Source: a virus (taxonomy: Duplodnaviria; Heunggongvirae; Uroviricota; Caudoviricetes). Taken from it: 36,117 nt of DNA. The position numbers and the translations under genes are program-made. Of the stretch, positions 1-3,355 are shown piece after piece. Where the stretch lies: the IMG/VR virus record IMGVR_UViG_2563366924_000002, positions 1-36,117 of that record; one strand, 5' to 3'. Numbering within the stretch: position 1 is the first letter of the stretch; each line of letters starts with the position of its first letter. The notes under the pieces are model-generated. The model worked only from the letters and a program-made list of their open reading frames with translations. It searched no databases and had not been told where the DNA came from.

Positions 1-471
1 CTAATAAAATACCCAATTTTCTGTTTCTTGGTTGTGTCCAAAGTTATATTCAATATCTGGTGTTGATGTATCAATATTCTTCATCCCATCAACAAGAGTT
101 GATACAACAGCCAAATCTTGTTTGATTCTCATTAAATGGTACTTCTTCCGGCGCAATAAACTTTCAATGGCAAGTTTCTTCGTTGGGAATGCAAAAGATC
201 TTTCTGCATTTTTTGCTACTTTCTTAATTGCATATCTATTTCTCCTTTGTTTCCATTCCTGTAACCACTGATTTGGTGCTGGTTTAAAATTAACAATCCA
301 ATGCGCAGGAACCAACCATGCATAATGCTCTGTCTGATGAAAAGCTATATATTGAAGTGCGAATATTTTTATCCCATCTTCTTCAACTGTCGCCTGGAAT
401 CTCCAGAAAACAGGCATTCCATCATGTTCAGTTTCTGATTCAGGAAAAGGTACGCTCCATGATTTTGTCAT
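1..471 (-). CDS. Hypothetical protein, N-terminal 156 aa only (gene runs off the window start); AT-rich cargo gene distal to N
   Basis: ORF starting at 471 with GAGGTGA ribosome-binding site 4 nt upstream; strongly AT-rich; no motif recognised. Confidence 0.45.
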   Translation of the reverse strand: MTKSWSVPFPESETEHDGMPVFWRFQATVEEDGIKIFALQYIAFHQTEHYAWLVPAHWIVNFKPAPNQWLQEWKQRRNRYAIKKVAKNAERSFAFPTKKLAIESLLRRKKYHLMRIKQDLAVVSTLVDGMKNIDTSTPDIEYNFGHNQETENWVFY

Positions 472-551
472 ATCTCACCTCAAATAATTCAGTGCAGTGT
501 TTATTCTGTTGTTTATGCCAAAAGAAGGCCGACTATGCGGCATAATTATTT

Positions 552-740
552 TTAACTATCATCAATACATGGCACTTTATTCCAGTCGATATCGTTTTTA
601 TTGTCGTCCCACATGTCTTTGTTTTTGTATTTCTCGCTACATCCTAGGCAAATGTTGTATGGCCTACCGATAAGGTTTAACGAAATACGTTGCATTTCAT
701 TTGATTCAAACATGTATCCACAGAACTGACATTTATGCAT
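552..740 (-). CDS. Small zinc-ribbon-like protein (62 aa, CxxC...CxxC), in the position lambda uses for ral
   Basis: Two Cys pairs (CQFC, CLGC); AT-rich; follows N on the same strand; weak hairpin plus T-run after its stop. Confidence 0.5.
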   Translation of the reverse strand: MHKCQFCGYMFESNEMQRISLNLIGRPYNICLGCSEKYKNKDMWDDNKNDIDWNKVPCIDDS

Positions 741-799
741 ATCTCACCCCTCATACAGTAGCTTACTGCCTAATTTCATTTTCTGGCGACCAACACAAG

Positions 800-1183
800 T
801 CACCTCGCCGTCAGTTGTTTTGATTTCCGGTAGCCTGCCGCGTAAATGGCTACGTTTGGAAGACATACACCAGTTTCTGGTTGCTTATGTCCAAACTCAT
901 TCGCGTACACAATGGCCGCTCGCTCCAGATTGCGTCTGTATTCTTTCTGTTGCCAGATCACGTCCTGTGCCATGAACTTAATTGGCTTAGCGTCTTCTAT
1001 GCGCTCAGGCGTTTCGTGAGTACCTTTAGCCTGAATCTGCGCTCTGCTTAGAGTAGGGCGGTGTAATACTTCTGAACTTATTGCTTCTTCGCGGGCCAGT
1101 ACGCCGTTAGCTAATGCCTTTGCCTTTAAACGCTCACGACGACGAGAACGTGAATTGCCTTTGAACTGAGTTCTGCGTGTCAT
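800..1183 (-). CDS. N: Antitermination protein N (P22 gp24-like)
   Basis: N-terminal arginine-rich motif RSRRRERLKAKALANG resembling lambda N RRRERRAEKQAQWKAAN; C-terminus YAAGYRKSKQLTAR resembling P22 gp24; GGAGG ribosome-binding site; sits downstream of nutL and OL/PL. Confidence 0.8.
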   Translation of the reverse strand: MTRRTQFKGNSRSRRRERLKAKALANGVLAREEAISSEVLHRPTLSRAQIQAKGTHETPERIEDAKPIKFMAQDVIWQQKEYRRNLERAAIVYANEFGHKQPETGVCLPNVAIYAAGYRKSKQLTAR

Positions 1184-1200
1184 ATAGACCTCCTGATGAA

Positions 1201-1430
1201 CTTTGGTGGTGTGGTGGCTGGTAGTCTAGCTCCAGCTTGTTGAGTCTCATTCGGAGGGGTATAACCGGCACCCCAGTGATTTTTCCATGCGACAACGTGC
1301 GCGTTATGGCGGCCTTATCGCCCGCGGCTCCCCATCTCGTCCACGCTATTGCTAGCGTTGGGAGCGCTTCACCGCTCAACAGTAGGTAAGCACTTGCCAG
1401 TGACTAGCTGGCTTCACCACACCCCAAAGT
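1201..1430 (-). promoter_or_regulatory. N leader RNA with long-range inverted repeat enclosing about 200 nt immediately upstream of the N ribosome-binding site
   Basis: Plus 1201-1216 ctttggtggtgtggtg is near-perfect reverse complement of plus 1415-1429 caccacaccccaaag. Confidence 0.45.
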
Positions 1431-1444
1431 TCACTTTGGTTATT

Positions 1445-1459
1445 GCGCTTTGTCAGCGC
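1445..1459 (-). promoter_or_regulatory. nutL boxB hairpin (P22 type, GCGCUGACAAAGCGC on the transcribed strand)
   Basis: Plus gcgctttgtcagcgc; reverse complement matches the P22 boxB as I recall it; located between PL and N. Confidence 0.6.
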
Positions 1460-1517
1460 CGTAGATTCATATTCGAATCGTTGTATATTCACCGCCCTGG
1501 TGAGTAGTGCGTCCTGC

Positions 1518-1620
1518 TGATGGGCAAACTTTATCGGAATGATAAATTAATGGCAATAGCAAAATGATAAATTCTTTTGATTTTCAAATATCGTATTGAT
1601 TCTTATGGTGTTTTATTTTG
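1518..1620 (-). promoter_or_regulatory. OL/PL region: leftward early promoter with repeated TGATAAAT operator half-sites
   Basis: Minus-strand TTGCCA, 17 nt, TAAAGT; repeated atgataaatt motifs at about 1539-1585, shared with the OR region. Confidence 0.5.
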
Positions 1621-1787: not shown

Positions 1788-2144
1788 TTAGTGAGGTAGT
1801 GATGGCATCATTTTTATTATTAACCCAACACCAGTTCCAACGGCTGCAAGAACTGAACCAATAATAGCCATGGCTTGGAGTCTCATTGCGCTGTGAAGTT
1901 CTGCTTTTGCATTAGCTATGTCTGTTTTAACAGATTCTACATTGGCAGATGTTGCATAGTTAGACTTAATTACAGCGATGTCGGTCGCCATGGTTGCGAC
2001 TTTATCTTCAAGAATTTTTATGCGCTGTAACATGTCACCACCTCCACCGTTACCACCACCATATGTCTCATCATTATGGTGGTTATGTGGAAAATTATCA
2101 ACTTTACTCCTGTCAAGAGGCACAGCGTACAGATGTCGTTTCAT
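1788..2144 (-). CDS. Small membrane protein (118 aa): His/Gly-rich N-terminus, coiled-coil-like middle, single C-terminal TM helix (XhlA-like architecture); second gene of the cI-linked cassette
   Basis: Hydrophobic stretch AMAIIGSVLAAVGTGVGLII near the C-terminus; GGGNGGGGD; start overlaps upstream stop by ATGA; AT-rich. Confidence 0.6.
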   Translation of the reverse strand: MKRHLYAVPLDRSKVDNFPHNHHNDETYGGGNGGGGDMLQRIKILEDKVATMATDIAVIKSNYATSANVESVKTDIANAKAELHSAMRLQAMAIIGSVLAAVGTGVGLIIKMMPSLPH

Positions 2145-2581
2145 TCCTTATCTCTGTTCGGGGTGGTTGAAATAAGAGCGCATTTTTTTTCATCAATAAC
2201 TTCGCTAAGATTACCATCAATGTCTTCAAAGATGCGATAAATTATGTCATATGTTCCTGTTTCTATAAGTTTGATGTTTTTAACGAAAAGATATGTGCCA
2301 ACCACAACATATTTTTCATTGACAGGAGAAAACATAAATGTTTGCAGTTGCTCTTGATTGCTAGAGATATCAGGTAAAACCGATTCTCCATTGAATACGA
2401 CATCAAGTTCGGTAGTGTATTTTTTTTCGTGCTCGAAGTACATTATTGCAGTTAGGTAAAATGAGCCGGAACAAGGGTATTCTTCCGACACTATTATAGG
2501 ATCTGGTGTCATAAAAGGAGTGATTGCCAGCCCGGGTTTTACCGCCGTTGTGTAGATTGTTATTATTTTTTCTTCTCTCAT
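2141..2581 (-). CDS. Hypothetical soluble protein (146 aa); first gene downstream of cI (rexA position)
   Basis: AAGGAAA ribosome-binding site; 69-bp gap after the cI stop; AT-rich; no motif recognised. Confidence 0.6.
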   Translation of the reverse strand: MREEKIITIYTTAVKPGLAITPFMTPDPIIVSEEYPCSGSFYLTAIMYFEHEKKYTTELDVVFNGESVLPDISSNQEQLQTFMFSPVNEKYVVVGTYLFVKNIKLIETGTYDIIYRIFEDIDGNLSEVIDEKKCALISTTPNRDKE

Positions 2582-2650: not shown

Positions 2651-3355
2651 TCACGAACTTTTCAGCCACTCCCTTGCCTCGATGTCATCCAGATGGCGAG
2701 ATTGCTTCAGAATACCAGCCACATACTCCACCTTTGCTACTTGATGATAAGGCAACGTTATTGGCCTGTGGTCTTGGTTGATGCTTGTAAATTGGTATTC
2801 TCCATCTCTGTCATAGCCAAGAACCTTAATCATGTTGTGTCCTTCAACGGTTCTGACAAACACCTCATCACCAGGGAATACTTTGGTGTTAGGCTCAATG
2901 AGTACATATTCTCCTGATTTTATTCTAGGCCACATGCTGTCTCCTTTCACACGAAGGCCAAAGGCATCTGGATCATCGCTATAAATTTTGAGCCACCCAT
3001 CGCGCTCTTCGGTCATCTCGATGGCACCATCAACACCAAGAATTGCCTCACCAACCACGCGCACTAACCCTTTTCTTACCTGACCGACAAAAGTTAAAGA
3101 ATCTGAGCATGATGCAATTGGTGTTACATCATGTACCAAATCAAGCCACCCATTAGGTAACCCAAGTGCGGCTTCAAATTTTCTTGCTAGTTTATCCCCT
3201 ATGTTTCGAGTGCTTTTTTCACCGGAGACTTGCGTGAGTTGAGAAGGGCTAACCCCAAGCTTATCGGCAAAGCTTGCATTAGTGTTACCCGCGATTTTTT
3301 TATGCTCATCTAGCAAAAACGCCAGATTCGATTTGCGAATATCTTTGTTTTCCAT
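2651..3355 (-). CDS. cI: CI-type prophage repressor (N-terminal HTH, C-terminal S24 LexA-like peptidase domain)
   Basis: HTH segment LGVSPSQLTQ; peptidase motif VKGDSMWPRIKSGEYVLIEP; divergent from the cro-like gene across an operator region. Confidence 0.9.
   Translation of the reverse strand: MENKDIRKSNLAFLLDEHKKIAGNTNASFADKLGVSPSQLTQVSGEKSTRNIGDKLARKFEAALGLPNGWLDLVHDVTPIASCSDSLTFVGQVRKGLVRVVGEAILGVDGAIEMTEERDGWLKIYSDDPDAFGLRVKGDSMWPRIKSGEYVLIEPNTKVFPGDEVFVRTVEGHNMIKVLGYDRDGEYQFTSINQDHRPITLPYHQVAKVEYVAGILKQSRHLDDIEAREWLKSS

Follow-up and report, generated by a model that had tools for sequence, protein, structure and literature searches.

Two small genes downstream of N in the leftward early operon of a mosaic HK97-like lambdoid phage

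Cassettes next to N and the ral slot

The DNA analysed here is the IMG/VR virus record IMGVR_UViG_2563366924_000002, a Caudoviricetes sequence of 36,117 nucleotides (nt), which was considered at its full length and is called the window below. Its first 1.2 kb hold three minus-strand genes, the antiterminator gene N followed by two small open reading frames (ORFs), ORF B and ORF A, which are the subject of this work. The order of genes and signals on this strand is that of an S24-peptidase repressor gene (cI), a pL-like promoter, a structured leader, N, ORF B and ORF A, with cro-like, cII and replication genes on the opposite strand, and the first 25 kb of the window form a mosaic of mEp235-, mEp234- and HK106-like sequence, i.e., of HK97-like phages. 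The region is the leftward early (pL) operon of a mosaic HK97-like lambdoid phage, in which the N gene defines both the operon and the timing of its expression. A consensus scan of positions 1-1800 gave a single sigma-70-like promoter match, at 1556-1528, and this is the presumed origin of a transcript spanning N, ORF B and ORF A (Table 1).

A first-pass annotation, made from the sequence without database searches, had described two AT-rich minus-strand genes downstream of N, and the base composition bears this out, the GC content of bases 1-740 being 35.9% against 50.1% for the whole window, the minimum among all its 740-bp windows. The same annotation had the larger gene running off the window after 156 amino acids (aa), which is incorrect: bases 1-3 (cta) are the TAG stop codon of ORF A, the ORF list likewise gives a complete frame, and the gene aligns collinearly, at 99.6% nucleotide identity, with the whole L0079 of phage 933W, which spans 471 nt and has the same 156 codons. 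The window starts exactly at this stop codon, and in relatives the next gene 3' of ORF A is ea10/ssb or a TolA-like gene of 340 aa. Both ORFs are immediately preceded by GAGG(G)GTGAGAT ahead of the ATG, in agreement with the good ribosome-binding site previously noted for the larger one.

Table 1. Features of the N-proximal region and of the repressor gene upstream of it (window coordinates)
Feature	Position	Strand	Description
ORF A	1..471	-	Complete, 156 aa, ATG 471-469, TAG 3-1; 933W L0079 / phrog_1636 family
ORF A translation-initiation region	472..489	-	GAGGTGAGAT ahead of ATG; CATATCTCACC again at 738-748 ahead of ORF B; junction of 933W-like and mEp213-like sequence
Conserved boundary sequence	490..546	-	Short GC hairpin and T-run (weakened here), then GGCATAAACAACAGAATAAACACTGCACTG
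ORF B	552..740	-	62-aa CxxC-x23-CxxC zinc mini-protein, predicted treble clef; phrog_19863; cassette in the ral slot
N-ORF B intergenic stretch	741..799	-	Upstream conserved slot flank; includes the ORF B ribosome-binding site GAGGGGTGAGAT
Antiterminator N	800..1183	-	127 aa, 933W/H-19B type; PF25694 N_peptide E 2e-15; phrog_271
pL-like promoter match	1528..1556	-	TTGCCA-17-TAAAGT, sigma-70-like, where pL is expected
S24-peptidase repressor (cI)	2651..3355	-	Upstream of the pL-like promoter

The two genes lie in sequence of different affinity. Positions 1-487 and 738-1224 are 98-99.6% identical to 933W, and the segment between them (490-804) matches mEp213 and Louie at 98.7-100% identity, with 100% nucleotide identity to mEp213 over 505-803. 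An 11-nt sequence comprising the start codon and Shine-Dalgarno sequence, CATATCTCACC on the plus strand, stands ahead of both ORFs (468-480 and 736-748), and its presence at both junctions between 933W-like and mEp213-like sequence suggests that cassettes were exchanged at the translation-initiation region. The stretches bordering ORF B (490-542 and 738-803) align at 86-87% identity with those bordering ral in phage 21, and because of this match we place ORF B in the true ral slot, the position that had been proposed for it. Downstream of every slot occupant examined there is a boundary sequence of ~55 bp, in which a small GC hairpin and then a T-run precede GGCATAAACAACAGAATAAACACTGCACTG. 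The mEp234 record labels the homologous hairpin as a rho-independent terminator; in the window the hairpin is weakened, its stability does not exceed that of shuffled sequence (z 0.09), and a functional terminator is not claimed here. The HK542 and mEp234 records annotate a "boundary sequence 4", a term that reportedly goes back to Degnan et al. in 2007. Like the boundary (linker) sequences of lambdoid immunity regions, these are short conserved stretches flanking exchangeable modules beside N, and they would account for the movement of cassettes by homologous recombination. Judged from these alignments, ORF A and ORF B are exchangeable cassettes of the N-proximal pL operon, and the same pair is also found behind a different N allele in a prophage of E. 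coli ECONIH4. In mEp213 (L002, 2815-4572) there are two N genes that differ from one another, mEp213_047 and mEp213_051, and behind each stands a separate set of small cassettes, with ORF B after one and orf184 after the other, as if the N-proximal region had been duplicated.

Ral (lambda, phage 21 and P22; PF11058, phrog_1055) and ORF B share the slot between N and the conserved boundary, a similar size (66 and 62 aa) and a richness in Cys, and in phage 21 ral is the first gene after N, and would thus be expressed at the same time as ORF B. The Cys spacing differs, and a homologous relationship was rejected, as ORF B gives no match to PF11058 (the phage 21 Ral matches with E 1.6e-48) and a hhalign probability of 0.2%, which supports the earlier remark that the protein does not resemble Ral. 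The comparisons indicate that ORF B replaces ral positionally, without relationship to Ral. Ral, which alleviates restriction, stimulates the HsdM methylation of type IA systems, and this acceleration is confined to type IA enzymes (review PMC12707154).

IMG/VR was scanned for the boundary sequence, which gave at least 120 loci, 113 of them with a callable upstream ORF. Among these listed matches, the ORF just upstream of the boundary belongs to at least 11 unrelated families: Ral at 62 loci, Nmad5 at 16, a 149-aa membrane-like protein at 15, H0090 at seven, an 80-aa protein and orf184 at three each, ORF A and ORF B at two each, and three families at a single locus each (three loci in all). 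In single genomes the slot holds ral (lambda, phage 21, HK544), the 83-aa H0090 (VT2-Sakai, mEp234), a 207-aa Nmad5 protein, or proteins of 147, 149 and 107 aa. It is empty in 933W, where L0079 abuts N, whereas in the window the ORF B cassette and the boundary sequence lie in between. The cassettes next to N can also be stacked: at one locus (L134, 4637-6211) N is followed by ORF B, a boundary, a 149-aa hydrophobic protein, a second boundary and ORF A, with the 32-bp core of the boundary repeated exactly, 526 bp apart; both ORFs there have the same sequence as the window copies. This repetition within one genome sets the boundary apart from the linker sequences of immunity regions, and we found no description of such a stacked array. 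L0079-type genes have an extra boundary copy behind them only at some loci (L042, L054), and after the gene in 933W, ECONIH4 and L134 no such copy was found.

The variable content between conserved flanks is that of the "Ral" accessory region, a hot spot placed second by diversity score in the work of Silas et al. (bioRxiv 10.1101/2023.04.06.535777), in line with the first-pass view of the region distal to N as a site of accessory genes. Three of its occupants, Ral, orf184 and Nmad5, have defence-related phenotypes or predictions. The orf184 product (mEp213_045, 107 aa) triggers gop-beta-cII abortive infection (same preprint), and a 107-aa gene 98% identical to it lies in E. coli USDA5905 between N and an L0079-type gene, i.e., in the ORF B position; unlike ORF A and ORF B, to which it is unrelated in sequence, orf184 has an experimental phenotype. 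In Dhillonvirus phages, mutations of nmad5 alter Tmn sensing, and a point mutation in the gene allows escape from Tmn defence (PMC11846954). Both ORF A and ORF B are absent from the 200-gene accessory list of Silas et al. and from the supplements of the follow-up paper, and a search of the literature for L0079 or the accessions of either protein found no paper.

The ORF B and ORF A families

ORF B matches phrog_19863 along its entire length (E 5.6e-47, residues 1-62 of 62). The mEp213 gp50 (AFM76390.1 / YP_007112393.1) and Louie CDS0039 genes are the same or almost the same in sequence, and the HK225 gene (gp39/40) shares 72% nucleotide and 68% protein identity with it. In these three phages it lies just downstream of N or its equivalent, with an N allele that differs from that of the window, and is always annotated as hypothetical; the homologues in Providencia and other prophages are also found early in an operon running away from the repressor gene. 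The contexts of the relatives differ otherwise, and there is no conserved partner gene. The family is rare, with only 16 clusters among 5.8 billion proteins and a presence in eight of 5,426 complete E. coli genomes. The NCBI pipeline annotates the gene in none of these eight RefSeq genomes (loci L023, H136-H143).

The two Cys pairs previously noticed in the 62-aa protein, CQFC and CLGC, form a CxxC-23-CxxC pattern, and C4, C7, C31 and C34 are invariant in all homologues (nine sequences, 68-98% identity), as are K3, Q5-Y9, M16-S20, N22, G25-Y28, I30, Y38, K41, W44, D45, N49 and D50. The full-length homologues found all have 62 aa, with 27-28 invariant residues from E. coli to Providencia. Across four homologues of equal length the proportion of nonsynonymous change (pN) is 0.19-0.20 and that of synonymous change (pS) 0.81-1.06, i.e., saturated, and because pN stays at ~0.2 while synonymous sites are saturated, ORF B is, as judged from these alignments, under purifying selection. 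A near-invariant fifth Cys, C58 in "VPC", is a His in one homologue (P0046; L013, 4001-4189), a swap that is compatible with a metal ligand or functional site rather than structural filler.

In the confident AlphaFold2 model of ORF B (predicted local distance difference test score, pLDDT, of 84), a zinc knuckle is followed by a second CxxC that opens a helix (residues 32-40), an arrangement that corresponds to a predicted treble clef around one Cys4 zinc site. The predicted CxxC knuckle and CxxC at a helix N-terminus, together with the small size, recall treble-clef and zinc-ribbon modules such as RING-like domains, the ClpX zinc-binding domain (ZBD) and CsfB/Gin, and by analogy with generic modules of this type ORF B is likely to act as a protein-binding module. 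The protein is mildly acidic, with an isoelectric point (pI) of 5.1 and a net charge of -2.5. A DNA mimic of the Ocr or ArdA type was considered and rejected for both proteins, since ORF B is only mildly acidic and ORF A has a pI of 9.1, and neither gives a profile match. A TraR/DksA C4 zinc-finger modulator of RNA polymerase was also rejected, PF01258 being absent from the Pfam matches even at E <= 1.

ORF A matches phrog_1636 over residues 1-156 of 156 (E 2.7e-112) and corresponds to L0079 of 933W (AAD25424.1 / NP_049479.1), with which it shares the position after N. In contrast to the scarce ORF B, it is found in 598 of the 5,426 complete E. coli genomes (>=95% identity; ~11%, about one in nine), in up to four copies per genome and always annotated as "hypothetical protein", and it is carried by many Shiga-toxin (Stx) phages. 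Its nearer relatives (55-99% identity) come from Escherichia, Pectobacterium, Brenneria, Cronobacter and Rosenbergiella, and an alignment of 22 sequences from several genera has 40 invariant columns. A profile search of 1.84 billion representatives added ~70 distant relatives of 130-155 aa (phrog_13631, phrog_25384), whose common features are a beta segment (YR...G), the motif (H)ET and a basic helix of the pattern K..K...RFAF.TKEEA...L..RK..QL.HLKR. The protein is basic and hydrophilic, with a beta-rich N-terminal half followed by a long basic helix, whose Lys/Arg-rich character is conserved. The family lies directly after N in Stx phages and elsewhere inside runs of small early genes, with neighbourhoods that differ between relatives and no conserved partner gene.

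The larger ORF had been described as lacking a recognisable motif, and this description stands for both proteins, neither of which has a match at or near the curated cut-offs of Pfam, NCBIfam or PADLOC. PADLOC gave nothing at E <= 0.001 for either, the sole match being a chance-level one of ORF A to Cas1_II (E 0.018), the ORF A profile found no relative among PDB sequences, and none of 42 sampled members of the distant family has a Pfam domain. An AP2 or integrase arm-type DNA-binding fold was rejected for ORF A, as profile similarity to AP2 or to the N-terminal domain of lambda Int was not found. In PHROGs both ORFs match families of unknown function only, and in the fold comparisons every match of either protein was below the level that indicates a relationship. 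The hidden Markov model and structure searches that had been suggested in the first pass gave no match in Pfam, NCBIfam, PADLOC, PDB or the fold comparisons that assigns a function to either protein.

Possible roles of the two genes

In our view, ORF B and ORF A would be two independent accessory cassettes of the early-left operon of a mosaic lambdoid phage, transcribed from pL by read-through under N-mediated antitermination. Since neither gene has a promoter-like site of its own and both are located downstream of N, their products would appear within minutes of infection or induction and would be silent in the repressed prophage. ORF B would have been swapped by recombination at the short conserved boundaries into the slot that is occupied by ral in lambda and phage 21, and in the course of infection both proteins may bind a macromolecule of the host or of a competitor, in the case of ORF B, for example, to counter a restriction or abortive-infection system outside the type IA range of Ral. 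Taken together, this layered explanation, of N-dependent, infection-phase cassettes encoding host- or defence-modulating binders, is the one we favour, tentatively and somewhat short of calling it probable. Its more specific part, that ORF B is a counter-defence protein, is possible at best. ORF B is nevertheless the better counter-defence candidate of the two, because it would be the first product after N, because the characterised slot occupants interact with defence systems, and because it is a small, rigid, zinc-stabilised binder, as predicted, with a conserved non-Cys surface. An extended form of the proposal, in which ORF B is a non-homologous replacement of Ral directed against a defence outside type IA and the boundary repeats define a stackable counter-defence array that includes ORF A, is likewise doubtful.

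Several points weigh against this explanation. The probable role of both proteins in modulating host or defence functions is argued from position, and guilt by location is a weak argument: the H0090 family (orf60), another slot occupant, was screened by Silas et al. (bioRxiv 10.1101/2023.04.06.535777), who do not name it with the genes that gave a phenotype. The expression of ORF A and ORF B is deduced from gene order and the consensus promoter scan, and the structural model of ORF A is poor (pLDDT 59). Moreover, ORF A is not hypervariable, as judged from its conservation at >=95% identity across the 598 E. coli genomes, and its context varies with the host, being beside xis-int in Pectobacterium. 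A distant relative of 149 aa is encoded by an unrelated 40-kb phage (L015, 3801-6080), where it follows a 65-aa helix-turn-helix (HTH) gene and precedes pRha, YopX and an Nmad5 gene. In phages of E. coli, Nmad5 can also fill the N-proximal slot.

The same properties of ORF A lend themselves to a different explanation, in which both genes encode host-takeover or regulatory proteins with no part in defence, ORF B binding a host regulator or enzyme, after the models of the anti-sigma factor CsfB, the ClpX zinc-binding domain, TraR-like RNA-polymerase modulators or the cell-division inhibitor Kil, and ORF A being a nucleic-acid-binding early protein. The basic pI of 9.1 and the conserved Lys/Arg-rich helix of ORF A, its stable conservation, the presence of its distant relatives among early regulatory genes (HTH, pRha, YopX), and the occurrence of kil and cIII in the same operon of relatives all agree with this. 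Against it stand the lack of a TraR/DksA or other regulator match in Pfam, the fold matches that stay below the relationship level throughout, and the defence-related nature of the characterised occupants of the ORF B slot. We regard such a role as unlikely rather than likely, and yet nearly as likely as the layered explanation given above.

The sieB genes of lambda and P22 are carried in this neighbourhood, and a sieB-like function in superinfection exclusion or prophage defence, shielding the lysogen from other phages, would also suit the AT-rich, moron-like composition and the 149-aa protein with hydrophobic segments that is an alternative cassette in the same array. However, both proteins are hydrophilic and soluble (grand average of hydropathy -0.59 and -0.83), with no match to SieB or a membrane family in Pfam and no significant match in PADLOC (E <= 0.001), and both genes lie after N in the repressed pL operon with no promoter-like site upstream of either; we consider this function improbable, and of the two roles raised in the first pass, anti-defence and exclusion, it is the weaker. 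Slightly more improbable still is a diverged core early function in recombination, replication or lysogeny control. ORF A is indeed widespread in Stx phages, between N and ea10/ssb, cIII, kil, gam, bet and exo, but both genes are exchanged as cassettes and many close relatives lack them, ORF B being absent from 933W and ORF A from VT2-Sakai, lambda and phage 21, and the check for homology to ordinary phage early genes, the finding that would have spoken against the first-pass proposal, revealed no relationship to any recombination, replication or lysogeny-control family. Finally, one or both ORFs could be chance reading frames in an AT-rich spacer, for which the missing annotation of ORF B in all eight complete E. 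coli genomes that contain it might be invoked. This is effectively refuted by the pattern of conservation, with a constant length, 27-28 invariant residues and a pN of ~0.2 against saturated synonymous change in ORF B and 40 invariant columns in ORF A, to which a strong Shine-Dalgarno sequence for both can be added, and on this evidence both ORFs are to be regarded as real, selected genes.

Both genes have been public as hypothetical proteins, since 1999 (L0079) and 2012 (mEp213 gp50), and the hot spot was already described. New here are the corrected end of ORF A, the definition of the slot and its boundary at the base level, the census of occupants, the example of stacked cassettes, and the recognition that ORF B is systematically unannotated. 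The position adjacent to N is expressed first after infection and is the home of the classical anti-restriction gene of lambda, and the slot boundaries together with the list of alternative cargo provide a short list of candidate counter-defence or defence-trigger genes. ORF A is a candidate present in 933W, in many further Shiga-toxin phages and in about one of every nine complete E. coli genomes, ORF B one that standard annotation misses, and both proteins are small and easy to test. Should neither have a defence phenotype, location in the hot spot would be a poor predictor of function.

Leader and repressor-proximal genes

The leader between the pL-like promoter and N (1184-1460, minus strand) is predicted to form a large closed fold with a minimum free energy of -111 kcal/mol (z = -4.24, equalled by none of 200 shuffles), in which a helix of ~25 bp stops just short of the N ribosome-binding site. 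At its 5' end is GCGCUGACAAAGCGC, which we take to be a P22-type boxB hairpin. Rfam gave no matches in the window, this leader included.

Directly downstream of the repressor gene, on the minus strand, there are two overlapping genes, of 146 aa (2141..2581) and 118 aa (1788..2144), the product of the latter having a Gly/His-rich N-terminal part and a hydrophobic C-terminal segment. Both proteins match PHROGs of unknown function only (phrog_5893, phrog_6324) and neither has a match in PADLOC. The pair is followed by a strong terminator at 1777-1756 (eight pairs, six of them GC) and occupies a rexAB-like position for lysogen-expressed genes.
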